From Escherichia coli (GTDB lineage Bacteria > Pseudomonadota > Gammaproteobacteria > Enterobacterales > Enterobacteriaceae), in the NCBI RefSeq assembly GCF_009931435.1, contig NZ_CP043414.1: a DNA stretch of 64,000 bases, one strand, 5' to 3'. This document shows, in pieces, positions 5,619 to 58,300 of this stretch. Numbering within the stretch: position 1 is the first letter of the stretch; every line of letters begins with the position of its first letter. The translations under genes and the position numbers were made by a program. Under the pieces are notes generated by a model, which saw nothing but the letters and a program-made list of their open reading frames with translations, did not search any database and was not told the origin of the DNA.

Positions 5619-5627
5619 TGTAAGAAG

Positions 5628-5664
5628 CTGGTCGCATCGGGTATTCATTGCCTGATGCGACGCT
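5628..5664. repeat. REP-like palindromic element / aldB terminator hairpin
   Basis: gtcgcatc...gatgcgac inverted repeat containing the REP consensus-like GCCTGATGCGACGC. Confidence 0.5.
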
Positions 5665-5895
5665 TTCGCGTTTTACCAATTCAAATGTCTACGTCTTGAA
5701 TGACTGAATATTGATTGAACTTAATTACGAGTCTCCTCGCATCTTTTCAACAAGTTACTGCACACCGTTATTCTTCTTCCGAACGGCATTCCTGAGTCAA
5801 CTTTATCCCCCTGACGGCCCATATAAATCGCGCTATCGTGATTGTTATTGCTAAATGTGTGTGTGTCGTGTGTATAATCATGGAAGGGCAGGGAT

Positions 5896-6081
5896 GTGAA
5901 AAGTGCAGACGTGATCGCCATCCTGAAGCAGCATGGCTGGGAACATATTCGAACCCGTGGTAGTCATCATCAGTTCCGCCACCCTGTTCATCCGGGTCTG
6001 GTGACGGTTCCGCACCCTAAAAAAGATATTAAGCCCGGTACGCTGGCGCAAATTGGGCGTCAGGCTGGTTTAACATTTTAA
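5896..6081 (+). CDS. HicA-family mRNA interferase toxin (predicted)
   Basis: 61-aa ORF with GTG start; motif RTRGSHHQFRHP and C-terminal PHPKKDIKPGTLAQIGRQAGL resemble the HicA/YcfA family; 16 nt upstream of a HicB-like ORF; TATAAT at 5873-5878. Confidence 0.6.
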   Translation: MKSADVIAILKQHGWEHIRTRGSHHQFRHPVHPGLVTVPHPKKDIKPGTLAQIGRQAGLTF

Positions 6082-6097
6082 AATTTCAGGAGGCAAT

Positions 6098-6508
6098 ATG
6101 TTTTATCCCGCCTATATCCACAGTGATCCTGACGGCAGCGCCAGCGGTTTTTTCCCTGATGTTCCAGGCTGTTATTTTGCTGGTGATACGCTGGACAACG
6201 CTTTCCAGGATGCGCGAAGTGCACTGGTCGCGCACTTCGAAACCTTATGCGAGATGAATGAAGAGTTGCCGCTTCCAGGCTCTGTGGAAACACATCTGGT
6301 CCAGCGTGCGCAGGACTTTATTGGCGGGCAATGGTTGCTGGTGGATATCAATATGAATCAGTTCGAAGGTCGGGCTGAACGTATCAATATTACGATGCCG
6401 AAAAGATTACTGAACAAGATTGATACCTACGTGCGCAATAACCCAGACTACGCCAACAGAAGTGCGTTTCTGGCGGAAGCTGCCCGGCGTGTATTGCCGG
6501 GCGTTTAA
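6098..6508 (+). CDS. HicB-family antitoxin with C-terminal ribbon-helix-helix domain (predicted)
   Basis: 136-aa ORF; N-terminal HicB-like fold signature (YPAYIHSDPDGSASGFFPDVPGCYFAGDT...ELPLP); C-terminal RHH-like segment INITMPKRLLNKIDTYV...NRSAFLAEAARRVL; SD AGGAGG 6 nt upstream of ATG. Confidence 0.6.
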   Translation: MFYPAYIHSDPDGSASGFFPDVPGCYFAGDTLDNAFQDARSALVAHFETLCEMNEELPLPGSVETHLVQRAQDFIGGQWLLVDINMNQFEGRAERINITMPKRLLNKIDTYVRNNPDYANRSAFLAEAARRVLPGV

Positions 6509-6840
6509 TCTCGCGTTTCGATGGTGAGCGGGCGGACCAGGCTGTACAGCCACAGACCAAAACAAGCGATGGTGCCAATCACCACGGTGAGGAACACACT
6601 GACTGACAGGCCTGCAAGCAATCCCGCAGGCAGGGCCAGCAGGCCGTGGATCACGGTGTCGTTCCATCTCACCTGATCGTAGCCAAACATGCCTAAAACG
6701 CCGCAAACCAGACCGTAAATCACCATTGGTGTTCCGAGGCCAATCAGCAATAAACGGTAGATAATTGAAGGTTTAATACGCTTTATCTGTACTGTGGATG
6801 TTTTACTGGGGTTATTCATTAGTTTGGTCAATAGTTCCAT
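6505..6840 (-). CDS. Hypothetical small inner-membrane protein (two or three predicted TM helices)
   Basis: 111-aa product from ATG at 6840 inside a 127-aa ORF; hydrophobic stretches IIYRLLLIGLGTPMVIYGLVCGVLGMF and LLALPAGLLAGLSVSVFLTVVIGTIACFGLWLY; convergent with the hicB-like gene and overlapping its 3' end by 4 nt. Confidence 0.4.
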   Translation of the reverse strand: MELLTKLMNNPSKTSTVQIKRIKPSIIYRLLLIGLGTPMVIYGLVCGVLGMFGYDQVRWNDTVIHGLLALPAGLLAGLSVSVFLTVVIGTIACFGLWLYSLVRPLTIETRD

Positions 6841-7001
6841 TATTTCAATATGATAAACCTCGACCTGTTGAAAAGCCAGGTAGCACACTTCAGAAAGTAT
6901 ATAAAAAACAATATGTCGTTATATAAATAAGGAAATTGCACTGCATCATGGCATTTCATAATATGCGTTAATTGTTCTTTTTTATATTCTCTGAGGGAAA
7001 T

Positions 7002-10349: not shown

Positions 10350-10437
10350 TTCAGGCTTGATAAGACGCGTTAAGCGTCGCATCAGGCAATGTGCACCCTA
10401 CGTTGGATGCGGCGCGAGCGCCTTATCCAACCTACGG
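10350..10437. repeat. REP/BIME palindromic repeat cluster
   Basis: Tandem REP-like units (GATAAGACGCGTTAAGCGTCGCATCAGGC; GGATGCGGCGCGAGCGCCTTATCC) between yiaT and the GH127-like gene. Confidence 0.6.
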
Positions 10438-12402
10438 ATGGCAATGCTTTTCCTCATTCACCCAGATCCGCATTTCGCCTTCACCCCGGTTGGCCCAGCT
10501 AAACCACGGGATAAACGTCAGAGTTTGCGGCTGGCGTTTGGCTGGCGCACTATCGTAATGCCACAGCTGTTGCTGCTCTGGATTGCTCTGTTCATACCGG
10601 TAACCCGGTGCCTGGATTAAGATCTTATGGTGGAACAATCCATTACCTTCAAATGTCGTAAATAGCGCATCGGCGGGCAGCCACAGGTTATGCAGTGACT
10701 CGCCGTTGTCGGCCTGTTCCAGGCAATACACCAGCGGGCCGCGCTGAATCGCCACTTTTCCGGCGACGTGACGCACCAGCGGGTTACCGTAAACGCGACG
10801 TACCGGCATTGGCAAAGTCAGATTCAGCGTGTCGCCCTCCTGCCATTCGCGGGTAATGTGCAAATACCCTTTACGAATATCCTGCTCGACCTCTTCCCCA
10901 TTCAATGTAATCTGCGGCTGTGTGCACCAGTCCGGCAGACGTAAAGCCAGCGTATGACGCACCGGCTGGGGCGATTCAACCGCAATTGTCACCTGTTCCT
11001 GCCACGGATAGTTTCCGCTAACCCGCAGACGCAGCGTGCCATTTTCTACCGGCACTTCCATGCTGTTTCCTGCGTAGATGTTGATATACAACGCATCTTC
11101 ACGCGGCGTGTAGAGATAATGACCAATCGAGGTTAGCACACGGGCGATATTTGGCGGACAACAAGCGCAACCAAACCAACGCTGGCGGATCGGCTTAACG
11201 TGATCGTAGATATGGTTGAATTTCAGCGATTTTGGATGTACTTCCAGCGGATTCACATAGAAGAAATGTTTGCCATCCAGCGCCATGCCGCCGAGCACGG
11301 TGTTGTACAGTGCGCGCTCCATCACATCGGCATATTGACTGTCGCCTTCCATTTCCAGCATTCGCCGGGCGAACATCATCAGACCGATGGAAGCACAGCT
11401 TTCGGCGTATACCGTGTCATTCGGCAGATCGTAATCGCTGCTGAACGCTTCGCCGCTGCTTTGTGAGCCAATGCCGCCGGTAATATATAACTGACGCTGG
11501 GCCATATTGTTCCACAGCCGCAGGCAGTCCTGACGCTTGCTTTCATCGTGACTTAAACGCGCGAGATGCGCGACGCCGGTCATCAGGTAGACAAAACGTA
11601 CCGCGTGACCAATGGCGGTTTGCTGCTGTGCGATGGGCAAATGTGCCTGGCTGTAGGCTTTGTCTTTCACCATCCACGCCGGGCCGTAGGTGTGCCAGTG
11701 CGAGGTCTGCCCGCGCTTTTCATATTCCTGGTCGTAATAGTGCGGTTGCGCACCACGCTGTTCGACAAAATAGTGGGTCAGCGCCAGGTAGCGCGGCTCT
11801 TCGGTCACTTCATACAGGCGCATTAGTGCCAGTTCAATTTCCGGGTGACCAGGATAACCGTGTAACTTACTTTCACCTGGACCAAATACGCTGTCGATAT
11901 GATCGGCCAGACGGCAAACCACTTCCAGCAAGCGCCGCTTGCCCGTGGCCTGGAAGAAGGCGACTCCGGCTTCAATCAGATGACCGGCGCAGTAAAGTTC
12001 ATGACACTCCGCCAGATTGCTCCAGCGTTCTTCGGGCGCTTTTACCGTAAAGTAAGTATTGAGATAGCCATCTTCGCACTGGGCGGAAGCGACCAGTTCG
12101 ATTACCTCGTCAGCAGTTTTTTCCAGTTCGGCATCCGGCTTCTGGCACAGCGACCAGGCTACCGCTTCCAGCCATTTGGCGACGTCGCTGTCCTGAAACA
12201 CCATCCCGTAAAATTCACCGTCTTGCAGTCCTGCGGCAATGCGAAAGTTTTCAATCGCATGGCTGGGTTCCGCTTCTGGGATACGATCGTTCAAGGCATC
12301 CCACTGATAAGGAATCACCACGTCGCGGACCAGTTGTTGGTACTGACCGAGGAACGGATCGCTGACCGTCAGTTTATGCAGATCGACTTCCGAAATGTTC
12401 AT
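10432..12402 (-). CDS. Glycoside hydrolase family 127 (DUF1680, beta-L-arabinofuranosidase-like) protein, cytoplasmic
   Basis: 656-aa product from ATG at 12402, preceded by AAGGAG with 6-nt spacer; no signal peptide; E-x-C (AESCAS) and C-x-CC (FGCACCPPN) motifs consistent with the Zn/Cys active site described for GH127 HypBA1. Confidence 0.75.
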   Translation of the reverse strand: MNISEVDLHKLTVSDPFLGQYQQLVRDVVIPYQWDALNDRIPEAEPSHAIENFRIAAGLQDGEFYGMVFQDSDVAKWLEAVAWSLCQKPDAELEKTADEVIELVASAQCEDGYLNTYFTVKAPEERWSNLAECHELYCAGHLIEAGVAFFQATGKRRLLEVVCRLADHIDSVFGPGESKLHGYPGHPEIELALMRLYEVTEEPRYLALTHYFVEQRGAQPHYYDQEYEKRGQTSHWHTYGPAWMVKDKAYSQAHLPIAQQQTAIGHAVRFVYLMTGVAHLARLSHDESKRQDCLRLWNNMAQRQLYITGGIGSQSSGEAFSSDYDLPNDTVYAESCASIGLMMFARRMLEMEGDSQYADVMERALYNTVLGGMALDGKHFFYVNPLEVHPKSLKFNHIYDHVKPIRQRWFGCACCPPNIARVLTSIGHYLYTPREDALYINIYAGNSMEVPVENGTLRLRVSGNYPWQEQVTIAVESPQPVRHTLALRLPDWCTQPQITLNGEEVEQDIRKGYLHITREWQEGDTLNLTLPMPVRRVYGNPLVRHVAGKVAIQRGPLVYCLEQADNGESLHNLWLPADALFTTFEGNGLFHHKILIQAPGYRYEQSNPEQQQLWHYDSAPAKRQPQTLTFIPWFSWANRGEGEMRIWVNEEKHCHP

Positions 12403-12412
12403 CTTGTGCTCC

Positions 12413-13813
12413 TTAAGGCTGTACATGACGCTGACGCAGGTCGCTAGCAATGCGTGACATCATAGGGTTATTGAGTTTGCAAAAGCGGATCGCCATCGCC
12501 AGCAGCAGGTGGAACAGCGCAGGCAGCAATGTTTCCATCGCCGCGATCCCGCCAAGCGAACTGGCGGTCTGGTTTTCCACGCCTGGCTGGTAGGCGACAA
12601 AAATAAACAGCAGGCTGATGATCCCGGCGCTGGAGGCCCAGGCCAGCTTGATGAAAAACAGATTGAAGGCGAAGTTCATGCCGGAAGAACGTACGCGGGT
12701 TTTCCACTCGCCGTAGTCATCGGCAAAGGCCATCAATGAGAAGTGCAATGGCAATGTGAAGCCAAGAATCACGCCATTACCAAGGATCACCGCCAGCCAC
12801 AGCGTTTGATAAGCCGGGCCAGAAGGCAGGAACCACATCAACACCGCCAGCGCGGCGAGGAGCAGGTTGGTGTAGTAGTAAATTTTGACGGTATCGAAAC
12901 GTCGCGTTAACGGGCTGACAATCACCGAGCCGATAATGGAGGCGAAGGTGACCATAGTGAAGAACAGCGACGTGTAGCCCGTACTGCCTTGTAAGACGTA
13001 GGTAATGAAGTACATATACCCACCGCCGCGAATATTAAAGACGTTAATCAGCAGGAAAGACATGACCAGCATCAGCAGCAGTTGGTCGTTGTTTCGCAGC
13101 CCGGCAAGATGTTCGCGCAGGGTAAATTTCCCCATTGTGGAGAGTGGCACCCGTTCACGAACCCAGAAGAAACAGCACAGGAACATCACCACAGCGATGG
13201 CGCACAGCACGCCGACGCCCAGTTGATAGCCGCGCGCGGCATTACCCTGACCGAAGAGATCTACCATCCACGGCAGGCCAACCGAAACCAGAAATCCCGC
13301 TACGCCGCAGAGAACGAATCGCCAGGACTGGCAGGAGATCACTTCATTGTGGCGGGTGGTCATGGTGTTGATCAGCGCGCAGTACGGCACGTTGATGGCG
13401 GTATAACCGACTGAAAGGAGCAGGTAAGTGCCGAACGCCCAGGCGATTTTTACTCCCATGCTGGCATCTGGCACGGTGAACGTCAGGATGCCGATAATGC
13501 CGATGGGAATGGCAATCCACAACTGCCACGGACGAAAGCGCCCCCAGCGACTTTGCGTCCGGTCGGCAATGACGCCCATCACCGGGTCGGAGATGGCATC
13601 AAACACGCGCAGTGCAATAAACAGCGTGCCGACCAGCGCCGGAGTTAAGCCAAAAACGTCGGTGTAGAAAAAGGTGAGAAAGTTCATGATCAGGCAAGTT
13701 ATTACGGTGCCGCCTGCGTCACCCAGGCCGTAGCCTATTTTTTCCCGTACAGATAACGCATCGTCAATTTTACCTTTAGCGATATCAGCGGTAGTAATCG
13801 GTGTAGAGGTCAT
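12413..13813 (-). CDS. GPH-family (MFS superfamily) glycoside/cation symporter
   Basis: 466-aa ORF; about 12 hydrophobic helices; N-terminal region with conserved Asp (GYGLGDAGG...[18 protein letters not shown]) typical of MelB/YicJ-like transporters; stop lies 10 nt upstream of the GH127 start. Confidence 0.75.
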
Positions 13814-14038
13814 AGATATTCCTCGTGCATAGGGAGCAATTTTTAGTTTTATTGAAATGACATGATTAATTCTGCCGTGAACGGGAATATCAACAAGGCG
13901 AGAAAAGAGTAAAAAAAGGTGACGATTCCGACCTGAATTTAAAAGTGTGAATTGGATCAGGTGAAATTAATGTTTTTGATTAATAATCAAAAGGTAATGT
14001 GTTTAATCATTAATGAATAAGCGGGAAATTACATATCA

Positions 14039-14854
14039 ATGCTCGAATTATCCATGACGTTACCGATTAAAGTGCAAAATGGTGGATTATTTATTTCCCG
14101 TGGCGTAGGGAGGCATCCTGCAAGGCGGCTGGAGTCATGGGAAATTATCTTTGTCGAAAAAGGTCGATTAACGATTCAGGAAGAAGAGCAGATATTTCAG
14201 GTTGATGCGGGAGAGAGTTTATTGCTCTGGCCGAAACGTCAGCACGTTGGTGTTGAGGATTTCCCCGCTGACCTTAAATTTTACTGGCTACATTTTGAGG
14301 TTAAAGCGCCGGACAACGATCCGCGCTGGCTCACTCATCTTAGCGTGCCGCAGCACACCAAAGTCGCCGACCCTCAGGCGTTGAGTGCACTGTTTCGCCA
14401 GTTTTTAAGCGAGCAGGAAAAACATCAGCGTAGCCCTGCGCTGGAGTTTATTGTGTTGTTGATTTTACAGCAGCTTACCTTCGACGTACGTCTTGATGAA
14501 CAAGCCGATACTGCAGGCACCGCCCTTGCCTGGAAAGCACAAAAGCTGATCCGCACGCAATATCATCGCCCGCTTTCTACGGCAATTTTGGCCCGCGAGC
14601 TCTACTGTAATGCCGATTATCTTGGGCGCGTGTATCGTCGGGTATTTCGTTTGACGTTGACAGAAGCTATCCATCGCCAAAGAGTGCGCGAAGCCGAAAA
14701 GCTGTTAATTAGCGAAGCGCGATCGCTCACGGAAGTGGCGGCGTTGTGCGGGTTTAATGACGTTGGCTATTTCCGACAGATTTTTCGCAAACACACCGGT
14801 TTAACGCCAGCTGCGTGGAAGCGACGTTACAGTAAGGAACATATCAATTCGTAG
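14039..14854 (+). CDS. AraC/XylS-family transcriptional regulator
   Basis: 271-aa ORF; N-terminal cupin-like sugar-binding domain, C-terminal double HTH (LTEVAALCGFNDVGYFRQIFRKHTGLTPAAWKRRY); divergent from the transporter gene. Confidence 0.8.
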   Translation: MLELSMTLPIKVQNGGLFISRGVGRHPARRLESWEIIFVEKGRLTIQEEEQIFQVDAGESLLLWPKRQHVGVEDFPADLKFYWLHFEVKAPDNDPRWLTHLSVPQHTKVADPQALSALFRQFLSEQEKHQRSPALEFIVLLILQQLTFDVRLDEQADTAGTALAWKAQKLIRTQYHRPLSTAILARELYCNADYLGRVYRRVFRLTLTEAIHRQRVREAEKLLISEARSLTEVAALCGFNDVGYFRQIFRKHTGLTPAAWKRRYSKEHINS

Positions 14855-14856
14855 TG

Positions 14857-14876
14857 CCGGGGCAATGAAGCCCCGG
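14857..14876. terminator. Hairpin between convergent AraC-type gene and sgbE (possible bidirectional terminator)
   Basis: ccgggg-caatgaag-ccccgg stem-loop; no clear T-run. Confidence 0.3.
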
Positions 14877-14885
14877 TCTGAGAGA

Positions 14886-15581
14886 TTACTGCCCGTAATA
14901 GGCATTGGCCCCATGCTTACGCAGGTAATGCTTATCCAGAAGTTCGTTTTGCATCGCAGGAAGCTGCGGCGCAAGCTGGCGCGAGAACAGGCCCATATAG
15001 GCGCACTCTTCGAGTACCACGGCATTATGCACCGCATCGGCGGCGTTATTGCCCCAGGCGAACGGACCGTGAGAATGCACCAATACCGCCGGGATTTGTG
15101 CCGGACTCCTGCCGCGTTCTTCGAAAGTTTCAATGATCACTTCGCCGGTCTGATATTCATATTCGCCGTTAATCTCCGCTGCGGTCATCTGTCGCGTGCA
15201 GGGGATTGCGCCATAGAAATAATCGGCGTGCGTAGTGCCCCAGGCAGGGAGATCCAGCCCGGCCTGTGACCAGATGGTGGCGTGGCGCGAGTGGGTATGC
15301 ACAATGCCACCGATTTCGGCATAGCGACGGTAAAGCGCCAGATGCGTTGGCGTATCGGACGAGGGCTTTTTGCTACCTTCCACCACCTTGCCGCTGGCTA
15401 TCTCAACCACCACCATATCGTCGGCGGTCATCACGTCGTACTCGACGCCGGAAGGCTTAATTACCATCCATTGCCGCGTCTCGTCTACCGCACTGACATT
15501 GCCCCAGGTAAACGTCACCAGATGGTGAGCGGGAAGCGCCAGATTTGCCGCCAGTACGTCGGCTTTCAATCGCTCTAACAT
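14886..15581 (-). CDS. sgbE: L-ribulose-5-phosphate 4-epimerase
   Basis: 231-aa ORF, class II aldolase/epimerase (AraD-like); last gene of the yiaK-sgbE operon. Confidence 0.9.
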
Positions 15582-16435
15582 ATAAATCCAGCCTCCTGCA
15601 TACGCGCTTCAATCCAGCGCCGTGCCTGAATAATCTCCAGCACCGGCTCTTTGGCTTTTTCGGTCCACATCTCAATCAGAAATGATCCGCGATAGTTCAG
15701 TTCATGCAGCGTTTTGAAGATGCCAACGAAATCGACGCAGCCTTCGCCAAACGGCACGTCGCGGAACTGTCCGGGGCTTTGCTCGGTGACTGGCTGGGTG
15801 TCTTTCAGGTGGATGGCGGCGATACGGTCAATGCCCAGTTTCAGTTCGGCGGGAACATCATTGCCCCAGGCGCTAAGGTTGCCGACGTCCGGGTAGACGG
15901 TGAACCACGGCGAGGCGAGCATCTCGTCCCACTTTTTCCATTTGCTGATGGAGTTCATAAACGAGGTATCCATAATCTCCACCGCCAGCATTACTTGTGA
16001 TGCCGCCGCCTGTTCGACAGCCCACGTCAGCCCTTCAGCAAAACGTTGCCGGGTACCTTCGTCATGGTCTTCGTAATAGACGTCGTAGCCCGCCAGTTGA
16101 ATGGTGCGAATACCGAGATCGCACGCCAGATGAATTGCTTTGCTCATGATCTCCAGTGCTCGCTGGCGTACCGCGTCGTCACGGCTACCAAAGGGAAAAC
16201 GACGATGTGCGGACAGGCACATCGACGGGATCCCAACGCCCGTTTCGATCATCGCGGCAACCAGCGAAGTCCTTTGTGCGGCGCTCCAGTCAAGGCGCGA
16301 CAGACGCTCGTCAGTTTCATCCACCGACATTTCGACAAAATCAAAGCCACAGCTTTTCGCCAGCACCAGCCGCTCCGGCCAGGAGAGATCTTTCGCCAGT
16401 GCTTTTTCATAAATCCCTAACGGATGATTACGCAC
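15575..16435 (-). CDS. sgbU: L-xylulose-5-phosphate 3-epimerase
   Basis: 286-aa product from GTG at 16435 ([13 protein letters not shown]...); overlaps sgbH stop by 8 nt; xylose-isomerase-like TIM barrel family. Confidence 0.85.
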
Positions 16436-17090
16436 GCGCGCCTCCCCAGATAGCGTCGATTTGCGCATGGAAGTCGGCCGCCACCTGCGCCGGATTTGCT
16501 GCGCCTGCCAGCGCCCGCCCGGCAATAAACGCTTTCACGCGGATATCTTTAAACAGCGGCAGGTCAGCAGGCGTAATCCCGCCGGTAACGGAAAGCTCAA
16601 GGCCGATATCGGAAAGCGCCTTCATGCGTGCCAGATCGGCTTCGCCCCACTGTTGCCCGCTGGCCTGCGCGTCACGGCCACGATGATAAATGGCCTGCCG
16701 CACGCCAATACGATGCCAGTCGCGGGCGTCGTCCAGCGTCCAGTTACCAAAAAGCTCTATCTGGATTTCACCACCGCAGCGTTGCGCCATCGCGTGGCCT
16801 TTTTCCACCGTCGCGAGCGGTGCGGCGCAGATGATGGTCATCCAGTTAGCGCCTGCACCAAACGCCTGTTGCGCGAGCGTTTCACCCGCGTCGGCGACTT
16901 TCCAGTCAGCAACGATGATTTTGTCCGGGCACTGTTCGCGCAAGGCTTTCACCGCGCCAAGCCCTTCGTTTAAACAGAGAATGGTGCCCGCTTCGACGAT
17001 ATCGACGCTGTCTTTTAACAGCGCAACGTCGCGCTGTGCGGCTTCAAGTGATGAGTGGTCGAGGGCCAGTTGCAGAAGTGGTCTGCTCAT
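16428..17090 (-). CDS. sgbH: 3-keto-L-gulonate-6-phosphate decarboxylase
   Basis: 220-aa ORF; orotidine-5'-phosphate decarboxylase-like family; overlaps lyxK stop (ATGA-type junction). Confidence 0.9.
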
Positions 17091-24590: not shown

Positions 24591-24690
24591 GCCGGATGCG
24601 GCTTAAACGCCTTATCCGGCCTACAAATTATTCCAAATTCAATATATTGCAGAAATGATGTAGGCCTGAAAAGCGTAGCGCATCAGGCAA
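24591..24690. repeat. REP/BIME element
   Basis: GCCGGATGCGGCTTAAACGCCTTATCCGGCCTACA ... GTAGGCCTGAAAAGCGTAGCGCATCAGGC palindromic units between ysaA and avtA. Confidence 0.6.
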
Positions 24691-43288: not shown

Positions 43289-43566
43289 TCGCTAAATAAT
43301 AGAGCAACCTTTAATAATCTTCTGATGAATAAAGATTGTCTCATATATTAATTTTATGAGATTTTTTTAGGATTATATCAAGGAGAAGAAACGAACTTAT
43401 TAAGCTAGAATAGCTGCGGGTGCTTGAGACTGTTTGTCTCAGGTATTCACCGAAAGGCAGACAGAGAAAAGCCCCACCTGACTATAAATCAAAGTGAGGC
43501 TACCCTATGCCTGAACACCATAAGGTTAGCCTCTTACTCGTTGGAAATCAACACAGGAGGCTGGGA

Positions 43567-43719
43567 ATGCCGCAGAAATATAGATTACTTTCTTTAATAG
43601 TGATTTGTTGCACGCTTTTATTTTTCACCTGGATGATAAGAGATTCACTGTGTGAATTGCATATTAAACAGGGGAGTTATGAGCTGGCGGCATTTTTAGC
43701 CTGCAATTTGAAAGAGTAA
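43567..43719 (+). CDS. hokA: Hok-family small membrane toxin (type I toxin-antitoxin)
   Basis: 50-aa ORF MPQKYRLLSLIVICCTLLFFTWMIRDSLCELHIKQGSYELAAFLACNLKE; strong SD AGGAGG; an in-frame upstream ATG at 43507 is treated as not the start. Confidence 0.85.
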   Translation: MPQKYRLLSLIVICCTLLFFTWMIRDSLCELHIKQGSYELAAFLACNLKE

Positions 43720-43907
43720 GAGTCTTCGGCGGGAAGTTATTCCCGCCTTTCTTACGGCGTTGCGCATTCTCATTGCACCCAAATTTATTCTTCACAAAAA
43801 TAATAATAGATTTTATTACGCGAACGATTATTTATTTCCTGAATAAACAAATAAAAAAATCCCCGCCATTTGGCAGGGATCTTAGATTCTGTGCTTTTAA
43901 GCAGAGA

Positions 43908-44120
43908 TTACAGGCTGGTTACGTTACCAGCTGCCGGGCCTTTAGCGCCGCTTTCGATGGTGAAGGACACTTTCTGACCTTCGTCCAGAGATTTGTAACC
44001 ATCGTTCTGGATAGCAGAGAAGTGTACGAACACGTCTTTAGAGCCATCGTCAGGAGTGATGAAGCCGAAGCCTTTGTCAGCGTTGAACCATTTTACGATA
44101 CCAGTCATTTTACCGGACAT
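43908..44120 (-). CDS. cspA: Major cold shock protein
   Basis: 70-aa [24 protein letters not shown]... with RNP1/RNP2 motifs. Confidence 0.97.
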
Positions 44121-44279
44121 AGTGTATTACCTTTAATAATTTAAATGTGCCTTTCGGCGATATGGCGTGCTTTACAGATTTTGAAGCGTTAAAGGAAATG
44201 CACTACGAGGGGTATCAACGATAACTCTTGAAGGGACTTGCCTTACTACACTGCTTTAATGGTCTGTACGTCAAACCGT
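44121..44279 (-). promoter_or_regulatory. cspA long 5' untranslated leader (cold-box / thermosensing region) with promoter immediately upstream
   Basis: About 160-nt leader upstream of the cspA ATG; extent assigned from established knowledge of cspA, not derived from the sequence alone. Confidence 0.6.
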
Positions 44280-44400
44280 TGATGTGCATTAAGCCACGCA
44301 TTGGCGGGTGATGCAACAATTATTTTTCATATTTATGATTAATCGGTTGGAAAACGGTCCTGTCATCAGGACCGTAAACAGAAATAAAGTGGATAAAAGT

Positions 44401-47622: not shown

Positions 47623-47774
47623 TGTTAATCCTTAATAACCTTTTTATTCTTTGCCACGGGTTCCGTGGCGGGAGATTATGCCGCGTGAACATGAAGATTA
47701 TTCCTGGGAATACTCGGAAATTTGTAAGTAATATTTAACTGCTCAATACATCTAACCTTTCAGGAGCCTTCGGT

Positions 47775-50108
47775 TTGGCCAACTCATCCTCACGATATTC
47801 CGTTCTGACTGCCGCCCACTGGGGGCCCATGCTGGTTGAAACCGACGGCGAAACCGTGCTTAGCTCGCGTGGCGCGTTAGCCACAGGAATGGAAAACTCC
47901 TTGCAGAGCGCGGTTCGCGACCAGGTTCACAGTAATACGCGGGTACGATTTCCAATGGTGCGCAAAGGCTTTCTTGCGTCACCGGAAAACCCGCAAGGCA
48001 TTCGTGGGCAGGATGAATTTGTTCGCGTGAGTTGGGATGAGGCGCTGGATCTCATCCATCATCAACATAAACGCATTCGTGAGGCTTATGGTCCGGCGTC
48101 GATTTTTGCGGGTTCCTACGGCTGGCGTTCAAACGGCGTACTGCATAAGGCCTCGACATTATTGCAACGTTATATGGCACTGGCAGGCGGTTATACCGGG
48201 CATCTGGGGGATTATTCGACCGGCGCGGCACAGGCGATCATGCCGTATGTCGTGGGGGGCAGCGAAGTTTATCAACAGCAGACCAGTTGGCCGCTGGTGC
48301 TGGAACATAGCGATGTCGTGGTGTTGTGGAGCGCTAACCCACTCAATACGCTGAAAATTGCGTGGAATGCATCCGATGAGCAGGGGCTTTCTTACTTTTC
48401 CGCACTGCGTGACAGCGGGAAAAAGCTGATCTGCATTGATCCAATGCGATCGGAAACCGTCGATTTCTTTGGCGATAAAATGGAGTGGGTGGCACCGCAC
48501 ATGGGCACCGATGTTGCGCTGATGCTGGGGATCGCCCATACGCTGGTGGAAAATGGCTGGCACGACGAAGCGTTTCTGGCGCGTTGCACCACAGGTTATG
48601 ACGTCTTCGCCTCTTATTTGCTGGGCGAGAGTGACGGAATAGCGAAAAATGCCGAATGGGCGGCAGAGATTTGTGGGATTAACGCAGAGAAAATCCGCGA
48701 ACTGGCGGCTATTTTTCATCAAAATACCACCATGCTGATGGCTGGCTGGGGAATGCAGCGCCAGCAGTTTGGTGAGCAAAAACACTGGATGATCGTCACC
48801 CTGGCAGCAATGTTAGGGCAAATCGGCACGCCTGGCGGGGGCTTTGGTCTTTCTTACCATTTTGCCAATGGTGGTAACCCTACGCGCCGCGCTGCGGTGC
48901 TTTCATCTATGCAGGGCAGCTTGCCAGGTGGCACCGATGCGGTAGATAAAATCCCCGTAGCCCGTATTGTTGAAGCTCTGGAAAACCCTGGCGGTGCATA
49001 CCAACACAATGGCATGAACCGTCACTTCCCGGATATTCGTTTTATCTGGTGGGCGGGCGGCGCCAACTTTACTCATCATCAGGATACCAATCGCCTGATT
49101 CGTGCCTGGCAAAAACCGGAGCTGGTGGTGATCTCCGAATGCTTCTGGACGGCAGCGGCGAAACACGCCGATATCGTCCTCCCTGCAACCACCTCGTTTG
49201 AGCGTAATGACCTCACCATGACCGGCGATTACAGTAATCAGCATCTGGTGCCGATGAAGCAAGTGGTGCCTCCACGTTATGAAGCGCGTAATGATTTTGA
49301 TGTCTTTGCCGAGTTGAGTGAACGTTGGGAGAAGGGCGGCTATGCGCGGTTTACGGAAGGAAAAAGTGAGCTGCAATGGCTGGAAACGTTTTATAACGTT
49401 GCACGGCAGCGCGGGGCAAGCCAGCAGGTTGAATTGCCGCCATTTGCTGAGTTCTGGGAAGCCAACCAGTTAATTGAGATGCCGGAAAACCCGGACAGCG
49501 AGCGGTTTATTCGCTTCGCCGATTTTCGCCGCGATCCGCAGGCGCATCCATTAAAAACCGCCAGCGGCAAGATTGAAATCTTCTCGCAGCGTATTGCCGA
49601 TTACGCTTATCCGGATTGCCCTGGGCATCCAATGTGGCTGGAGCCGGACGAATGGCAGGGCAATGCCGAACCGGAACAGTTGCAGGTACTTTCTGCTCAT
49701 CCGGCACATCGTCTGCACAGCCAGCTGAATTACAGTTCTCTGCGCGAATTGTACGCGGTGGCAAATCGTGAGCCTGTCACCATTCATCCTGACGATGCCC
49801 AGGCGCGCGGCATACAAGATGGCGATATTGTTCGGTTGTGGAACGCACGCGGGCAAATTCTTGCCGGAGCGGTCATTAGCGAGGGAATTAAACCTGGCGT
49901 GATTTGCATTCATGAAGGGGCATGGCCGGATCTGGATTTAACCGCTGACGGTATTTGTAAAAACGGCGCGGTGAACGTTCTGACCAAAGATCTCCCCAGC
50001 TCGCGGCTGGGGAATGGCTGTGCGGGTAATACGGCGCTGGCATGGCTGGAAAAATACAACGGTCCGGAACTGACACTTACAGCGTTTGAACCACCGGCCA
50101 GCTCATAA
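47775..50108 (+). CDS. bisC: Biotin sulfoxide reductase (molybdopterin oxidoreductase)
   Basis: 777-aa ORF apparently initiating at TTG (47775) with CAGGAG SD 8 nt upstream. Confidence 0.88.
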
Positions 50109-55476: not shown

Positions 55477-55553
<77 letters not shown>

Positions 55554-55562
55554 AATTCGAAA

Positions 55563-55589
55563 AGCCTGCTCAGCGAGCAGGCTTTTTTG
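55563..55589 (+). terminator. Rho-independent terminator after proK
   Basis: agcctgctc-agc-gagcaggct hairpin followed by a T6 run. Confidence 0.75.
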
Positions 55590-55603
55590 CATTTGAAGCC
55601 CAT

Positions 55604-55889
55604 GAGGATGAGAACCTCCGGGGGCGGGGAGGTTCGACTCGAGCGAAGCGAGAGAACGTTGCGCCAGCAACGGCCCGCAGGGCGAGCCACGAAGTGGCGA
55701 GTAATCCTCTATCACCGACCAATTTAGAAAAACCAGCCTACGGGCTGGTTTTTTGCTTTCTGCGGCCTGAAGAGGATGAGAACTTCCGGGGGCAGGGAGG
55801 TTCGACTCCAGCAAAGCGAGAGAACGCTGCGTCAGCAACGGCCCGCAGGGCGAGCCACGCAGTGGCGAGTAATCCTCTGGCACCGACCA
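55604..55889 (+). repeat. Two tandem 118-nt repeat units (168-nt period), each ending with a copy of the tRNA-Pro 3' end
   Basis: Units 55604-55721 and 55772-55889 are about 92% identical by eye; each ends AGTAATCCTCT(A/G)(T/G)CACCGACCA; second terminator-like hairpin at 55733-55754 between units. Confidence 0.7.
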
Positions 55890-55898
55890 AATCTGAAC

Positions 55899-55985
55899 GT
55901 AGGCCTGATAAGACGCGTTAGCGCCGCATCAGGCAACGGCACCGCACTTATTGTCGGATGCGGCGTGAACGCCTTATCTGACCGA
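55899..55985. repeat. REP/BIME element
   Basis: AGGCCTGATAAGACGCGTTAGCGCCGCATCAGGC ... GGATGCGGCGTGAACGCCTTATC. Confidence 0.6.

Positions 55986-58195: not shown

Positions 58196-58300
<105 letters not shown>

Follow-up and report, generated by a model that had tools for sequence, protein, structure and literature searches.

Initiation at GUG or UUG has been reported to reach 10–100% of that at AUG. Start codons other than AUG tend to be accompanied by stronger and better conserved Shine–Dalgarno (SD) sequences, and AUG is favoured genome-wide (Belinky, Rogozin and Koonin, 2017; PMC5622118). Here, we analyzed the start codons in a 64,000-nucleotide (nt) stretch of an Escherichia coli chromosome (contig NZ_CP043414.1), referred to as the window, in which three genes, bisC, sgbU, and a hicA-like gene, begin with TTG, GTG, and GTG, respectively. 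The bisC gene is like the compensated non-AUG starts of that study, as it pairs a weak start with a strong, conserved SD. The trend reported for such starts is a switch to AUG, whereas bisC and the hicA clade never switched, family-wide (PMC5622118 for the trend).

For the toxin gene, the closest described system is the hicAB operon of E. coli K-12. According to a published summary, this operon is transcribed from two promoters, P1 and P2, the second of which yields an mRNA for the antitoxin only (Turnbull and Gerdes, 2017, summarised in PMC11594946). Because the second K-12 promoter gives an antitoxin-only mRNA, the hicAB family needs a device that ensures antitoxin excess. As far as the K-12 system is described in that summary, the module in the window resembles it in being a toxin-first operon that needs antitoxin excess, with HicB repressing via a promoter operator (PMC11594946). 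The two differ in that the HicA of the window belongs to another subfamily, closest to Burkholderia HicA (4c26), and the cassette that carries it is absent from the K-12 locus. The classic poor start codon acting as a regulatory sensor is the AUU of infC, through which initiation factor 3 (IF3) is autoregulated. The likeness of the present genes to infC, in that a sub-optimal, conserved start would set expression, is an analogy only: unlike infC, they give no evidence for feedback by IF3 or another factor, and they use the canonical near-cognates UUG and GUG rather than AUU.

Near-cognate starts in the window

The gene order of the window is selB, aldB, hicAB, the yia and sgb genes, xyl, glyQS, bisC, and dpp. 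The bisC region found its best match at 98.9% identity among 5,422 E. coli genomes, and the hicAB region is 99.8% identical to that of strain R32_14_1F. As references, we used the annotation of this closest genome (NZ_CP074749.1) by the Prokaryotic Genome Annotation Pipeline (PGAP) and that of K-12 MG1655. When 57 annotated coding sequences (CDSs) were mapped onto the window, 54 began with ATG, two with GTG, and one with TTG, and bisC, sgbU, and hicA make up the full set of non-ATG starts (3/57, ~5%). Published genome-wide usage in E. coli is 83/14/3% for ATG/GTG/TTG, and another published figure is ~88% ATG. The probability of finding at most three non-ATG starts among 57 genes is 0.008 at a rate of 17% and 0.17 at a rate of 10%. 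An enrichment of non-ATG starts was rejected, because 3/57 stands at or below the genome-wide rate of 12–17%; if anything, such starts are depleted in the window.

All three starts are identical in the PGAP annotation of NZ_CP074749.1, and the K-12 annotation has the same bisC TTG and the same sgbU GTG. A preliminary description, made from the sequence alone, had placed these codons at 47775 (bisC), 16435 on the minus strand (sgbU), and 5896 (hicA); they are present at these positions and match the PGAP starts. The SD sequences that it had called reasonable were likewise found, with AGGAG before bisC (8-nt spacer), GGGGAGG before sgbU (5-nt spacer), and a weaker GGAAGGG before hicA. It had further held that no other in-frame start was available. 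This is true of bisC and hicA, where the codon is the first usable start after an in-frame stop, but not of sgbU, which has an ATG at 16468 and a TTG at 16525 upstream. The three assignments are correct, are already in public annotation, and represent an ordinary case.

At each of the three genes, upstream candidates are absent or excluded, an SD lies 5–10 nt upstream, and the N-terminus is as in homologues, with homology to solved structures starting 1–10 residues from the proposed start. Upstream of the conserved HWG motif, bisC offers just one other start candidate, a CTG that immediately follows the TAA closing the frame and has no SD. The homology of BisC to the structures of TorZ and dimethyl sulfoxide (DMSO) reductase begins at residues 7–10, with only six residues preceding it, and residues 9–10 are the first to align with 1dms and 1eu1, at the N-termini of their mature forms. 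BisC is of the cytoplasmic type within the DMSO reductase family, having an N-terminal domain like those of DorA, TorA, and TorZ and no twin-arginine signal peptide. The K-12 gene (b3551, NP_418007.3) has the same TTG, the same SD, and the same 777 amino acids (aa), and differs upstream in reading AGGAGT where the window reads AGGAGC. No alternative bisC site is found in the complete Table S3 of INRI-seq, a cell-free retapamulin data set covering −30 to +153 of every K-12 gene.

The hicA frame contains an in-frame TAA at 5875–5877, 21 nt upstream of the start, and the protein has no internal Met. It matches PF07927 (HicA_toxin) from residue 4 with 82.7 bits (cut-off 27), and the gene that follows matches PF15919 (HicB_lk_antitox) with 123 bits. 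Residue 1 aligns with Met1 of both Burkholderia HicA (4c26) and Yersinia HicA3 (4p78), and 6g26 is also homologous. With this domain and an adjacent antitoxin, the gene would encode the HicA toxin of a type II hicAB module, for which RNase toxicity is expected from homology.

We consider it very likely that all three codons are true and unremarkable near-cognate (GUG/UUG) initiation sites, read by the initiator formylmethionyl-tRNA (fMet-tRNA), and that their evolution has differed. UUG would start bisC and GUG would start sgbU and hicA, each with a normally spaced SD (Table 1). The GUG of sgbU would be a lineage variant of an AUG start within a coupled overlap with sgbH, where codon identity is probably of little weight. 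The UUG of bisC, together with its conserved AGGAG, most likely holds the synthesis of a cytoplasmic molybdoenzyme at a low set point. In the toxin-first hicAB operon, the weak start of hicA and the strong start of hicB would keep toxin synthesis below that of the antitoxin.

Table 1. Coordinates of the start sites and associated elements of bisC, hicA, and sgbU in the window. RBS, ribosome-binding site; ORF, open reading frame.
Feature	Position	Strand	Observation
bisC CDS	47775–50108	+	777 aa, biotin sulfoxide reductase (PGAP product name)
bisC initiation codon TTG	47775–47777	+	First start after in-frame stop; start in PGAP and K-12; TTG in 77/81 sequences
bisC SD core AGGAG, 8-nt spacer to TTG	47762–47766	+	Read from sequence; duplex −6.6 kcal/mol
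TAA closing the bisC frame upstream	47736–47738	+	Nearest upstream in-frame stop
In-frame ATG, bisC codon 19, rejected start	47829–47831	+	3′ of the conserved TAAHWG, which aligns to TorZ/DorA structures
In-frame ATG, bisC codon 39, rejected start	47889–47891	+	Loss of 38 conserved residues
hicA-like toxin gene	5896–6081	+	61 aa, PF07927
hicA initiation codon GTG	5896–5898	+	Aligned to Met1 of homologues; GTG in 6 further diverged lineages
Weak SD-like GGAAGGG before hicA	5882–5888	+	Duplex −6.9 kcal/mol; hicB site stronger in every lineage checked
Minimal AUG-UGA start-stop ORF overlapping the hicA GTG	5894–5899	+	Read from sequence
Perfect TATAAT, 17 nt upstream of the hicA GTG, putative −10 box	5873–5878	+	Kept in 4/5 orthologues
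GT-rich tandem motif GTGTGT..GTGTGTAT, putative HicB operator	5856–5872	+	Orthologues: GTGTGTAT-n-GTGTGTATAAT
hicB RBS AGGAGG, with ATG at 6098	6088–6100	+	Duplex −10.3 kcal/mol
sgbU CDS	15575–16435	−	286 aa
sgbU initiation codon GTG	16433–16435	−	ATG at the homologous codon in four orthologues
sgbU SD GGGGAGG, within the 3′ end of sgbH, 5-nt spacer	16441–16447	−	Duplex −11.3 kcal/mol, strongest of all candidates
sgbH stop TAA, overlapping sgbU codons 2–3	16428–16430	−	ORF coordinates; translational-coupling geometry
Upstream in-frame ATG, rejected sgbU start (297 aa)	16466–16468	−	Extension absent in Enterobacter and Kluyvera

Retention of the weak starts of bisC and hicA

Orthologues of bisC were scanned in one genome per species, which gave 80 loci from 21 named Enterobacteriaceae genera and, with the window, 81 sequences. 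At the homologous start, TTG was found in 77 sequences, GTG in three (two Leclercia and one Silvania), TTA in one, and ATG in none. The residues that follow the start are variable, with insertions and deletions, and the distance from the start to the His of HWG ranges from 11 to 15 codons. In a 77-sequence leader alignment, the GAG of the SD was invariant, and G59 and C63 were at least 90% conserved. The rate of change was evaluated by counting parsimony transversions on a neighbour-joining tree, with 74 fourfold-degenerate sites in invariant-residue codons for comparison. Position 1 of the start codon showed one transversion, against a mean of 10.4 at the fourfold sites, and only 3/74 of these sites had one or fewer; the weak codon is more conserved than neutral sites. 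Judged by the 77 of 81 sequences with TTG, the complete lack of ATG, and the saturation of neutral sites, the TTG is ancient in the enterobacterial gene and has been retained. Of the three starts, it shows the deepest conservation, a point that the preliminary description did not make. Outside the family, cytoplasmic BisC homologues start with ATG in Thioclava and Cupriavidus, and the Agrobacterium homologue is annotated with TTG. Matches to BisC on Pantoea plasmids were set aside as distant paralogues (38% identity) that are uninformative on the start codon.

Orthologues of hicA with 61–81% identity, from Enterobacter cloacae, Enterobacter bugandensis, Pseudocitrobacter, Trabulsiella, and Dryocola, all begin with GTG, as does a phage-borne group with 55% identity, and the Proteus gene begins with TTG. 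The start is GTG or TTG in 8/8 Enterobacterales lineages examined; among more distant homologues outside this clade, it is ATG in 16/17 lineages. In the seven GTG lineages, with Proteus left out, the third base was invariant in only one of 24 conserved-residue codons, and here, too, the weak codon is more conserved than neutral sites. The single transition from GTG to ATG was never fixed in the clade, although synonymous sites are saturated. Furthermore, SD duplexes were compared in the six lineages in which both genes of the operon were read; they ranged from −4.4 to −7.9 kcal/mol for hicA and from −6.9 to −10.3 kcal/mol for hicB. In all six, hicB has ATG with AGGAG, and its SD is stronger than that of hicA.

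The preliminary description had suggested that weak start codons can set low translation levels, which would matter for a toxin gene. At hicA, these comparisons lend support to this suggestion as a plausible one, and the same reasoning would fit bisC. The combination of a weak toxin start with a strong antitoxin start may plausibly be an alternative route to antitoxin excess. The data show where the starts lie, how far they are conserved, and that the ribosome-binding sites of hicA and hicB differ in strength; an effect on translation level and a selective reason for it are inferred. We tentatively go one step further and propose that the weak starts of bisC (UUG) and of the hicA clade (GUG/UUG) may be actively selected rather than products of drift. 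In bisC, selection would favour a low set point for a cofactor-hungry enzyme, possibly one that is sensitive to IF3; in hicA, it would favour sub-stoichiometric synthesis of toxin relative to antitoxin, possibly reinforced by the AUG-UGA that overlaps the start.

The alternative that fares best is that all three non-ATG starts have drifted neutrally, and that the conservation of bisC and hicA reflects shared ancestry plus weak selection. We regard this as possible, on balance doubtful. Selection on start codons is weak genome-wide, with a sizeable neutral range (PMC5622118), and ATG and GTG have been freely exchanged between genera at sgbU. Set against this, synonymous sites are saturated on the same trees (a mean of 10.4 transversions in bisC; 23/24 sites variable in hicA), and the changes that did occur were only among weak codons, from TTG to GTG in Leclercia and Silvania and between GTG and TTG in the hicA clade, never to ATG. 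Moreover, GTG is one transition away from ATG, and AUG is the generally favoured state.

Several points weigh against our preferred account of three true near-cognate starts with differing evolution. The conservation tests, which the drift explanation can also claim, are single-site empirical ranks of ~0.04 each (3/74 for bisC; 1/24 for hicA), and the lineages compared are not phylogenetically independent. A single origin followed by weak constraint could account for each conserved weak start, and the neutral range of initiation rates could accommodate weak codons, genome-wide selection on starts being weak and AUG-favouring (PMC5622118). TRAINSPOTTER N-terminomics has no entries for bisC or sgbU. 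Finally, INRI-seq ascribes its peaks at K-12 sgbU to GTG at position −6 and CTG at position −14, which makes the exact K-12 start codon slightly ambiguous. The in-frame GTG that K-12 carries two codons before the sgbU start, a putative alternative initiation site, is gone in the window, because GCG replaces it at 16439–16441.

A further alternative, which we think rather improbable, is that hicA is throttled by the AUG-UGA at 5894–5899. Most ribosomes recruited by the weak SD would start there and terminate immediately, and a fraction would initiate at the GUG, either directly or after re-initiation. As a start codon, AUG is the stronger of the two, and the AUGUGA hexamer of the window recurs in four orthologous lineages (two Enterobacter species, Pseudocitrobacter, and Trabulsiella) while neighbouring bases vary. 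However, Dryocola, the phage group, and Proteus lack AUGUGA yet have weak starts, and the hexamer is confined to the five most closely related lineages, which may have kept it by descent and not by selection. The AUG-UGA is a putative element that could act as a ribosome decoy.

On our account of retained near-cognate starts, bisC and the hicA subfamily are clean natural cases of a weak start kept across genera against the drift toward AUG. They would be handy for testing selection on start strength, bisC with respect to enzyme dosage and hicA with respect to the toxin:antitoxin ratio in reverse-order operons. A literature search found no paper that specifically names the bisC TTG or the hicA GTG start.

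The sgbU start and displaced initiation sites

In Enterobacter, Kluyvera, Yersinia, and Serratia, the homologous sgbU codon is ATG, exactly in register with the GTG of E. coli, and in Hafnia the gene starts at an ATG four codons earlier. The alignment to the UlaE structure begins at SgbU residue 3. The K-12 gene (b3582, NP_418039.2) has the same GTG, SD, and 286-aa product as the window, and the sgbH stop of the orthologues also lies at, or a few bases from, the sgbU start. The weak codon of sgbU is not conserved beyond neutral sites. On the evidence of these alignments, the position of the start is secure, and the GTG is a variant of the E. coli lineage. Because the GTG is specific to this lineage, the idea of a low translation level gains no support for sgbU from the sequence comparison, and the choice of start codon appears to be neutral.

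That sgbU starts upstream within sgbH, at ATG 16468 (297 aa) or TTG 16525 (316 aa), seems to us very improbable. Both codons are in frame with no stop between, and the 297-aa version occurs in 38 database entries. These starts are excluded because orthologues have ATG at the homologous codon and Enterobacter and Kluyvera have no start codon upstream of it, with in-frame stops 24–63 nt upstream. In addition, the orthologues, Hafnia excepted, begin with MR(Q/T/N) at the homologous codon, the strongest SD precedes the GTG, and the paralogue UlaE has an equal N-terminal extent.

Still less credible is the explanation that the true starts are downstream ATGs (bisC codon 19 or 39, the latter giving 739 aa; sgbU codon 36) and that the TTG and GTG codons are ordinary Leu or Val codons or untranslated: in-frame ATGs do exist at 47829 and 47889 (bisC) and at 16330 (sgbU), the one at 47829 is preceded by a G-rich stretch (duplex −7.8 kcal/mol), and the K-12 BisC record has been revised, NP_418007.3 being its third version, with an older annotation that may have used Met39, but structural homology is already present from BisC residues 7–10 and SgbU residue 3, TAAHWG upstream of BisC Met19 is conserved in 81/81 sequences, every SgbU orthologue retains LGIYEKAL, no ATG occurs within hicA, and INRI-seq has no downstream alternative site for K-12 bisC or sgbU. 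Since structural homology begins at residues 7–10, starting at the ATG of codon 19 or 39 would delete TAAHWG. Shorter bisC products from Met19 or Met39 are firmly excluded, and the RefSeq annotation is unchanged.

Leaders, upstream elements, and neighbouring genes

The bisC leader was examined for RNA elements. It has no Rfam match in the window at gathering thresholds, and the leaders of six orthologous loci have none at E values up to 1; a molybdenum cofactor riboswitch or another known RNA was rejected on this ground as the cause of the conserved weak start. RNAalifold predicted no consensus structure from the 77-sequence leader alignment, which is gappy, and the candidate of a conserved hairpin masking the SD was dropped with it. 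Single-sequence folds gave an upstream hairpin in many genera (median dG −7.2, z −1.3), not in E. coli or Salmonella. The stems of this hairpin, which lies 5′ of the SD, vary by genus with compensating changes (ACGGC/GCCGT, GCGAT/ATCGC, GTGAT/ATCAC, and GCCT/AGGC). An ACCTGC motif was found ~20–60 nt upstream of the start in 59/81 sequences, comprising most non-Escherichia genera. The leaders of E. coli and Salmonella have neither the ACCTGC motif nor the hairpin, and both are absent from 47705–47760 of the window. A sigma-54 reading of the CACCTGCA motif in bisC leader sequences was rejected, as its GG–GC spacing is one base too long. A promoter scan upstream of bisC gave one weak candidate, TTGCCA-17-GATTAT at 47651–47679.

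Two further observations concern bisC orthologues. The TTA at the homologous start belongs to the E. coli assembly SCPM-O-B-8794; either the start codon has been lost there or the sequence contains an error. At three loci of Citrobacter spp., an in-frame ATG lies ~30 codons upstream of the TTG with no stop between, and an extended BisC is formally possible there.

Upstream of hicA, a consensus scan found no full sigma-70 −35/−10 pair. The tandem motif before the gene is probably a widely conserved, putative HicB operator. Related TGTGTAT/ATACACA motifs stand right before the hicA starts of Legionella, Bradyrhizobium, Mesorhizobium, Marinobacter, Komagataeibacter plasmids, and viral contigs. 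In several distant hicA genes, the ATG is so close to a −10-like box that the mRNA may be leaderless.

The hicAB cassette (5619–7001) includes a 104-aa hypothetical gene on the opposite strand. It is accessory, with at least 80% of the region present in 313/5,426 complete E. coli genomes, and K-12 has no such cassette between aldB and yiaW. The hicAB orthologues lie in the same chromosomal neighbourhood, by a MipA/yiaT-like gene in Enterobacter and Pseudocitrobacter and by selB in Trabulsiella.

Elsewhere in the window, the interval from yiaT to sgbE (~10430–14860) holds genes for a GH127 glycoside hydrolase, a major facilitator superfamily (MFS) transporter, and an AraC-family regulator; between the same two genes, K-12 retains only the pseudogene remnants ysaC and ysaD. 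Matches to Rfam were obtained at 43418–44280, 55477–55983, 10354–10432, 24625–24667, and 58219–58261, and comprise the cspA thermoregulator, sok by hokA, tRNA-Pro, two RtT, two naRNA4, and two ES036 elements.

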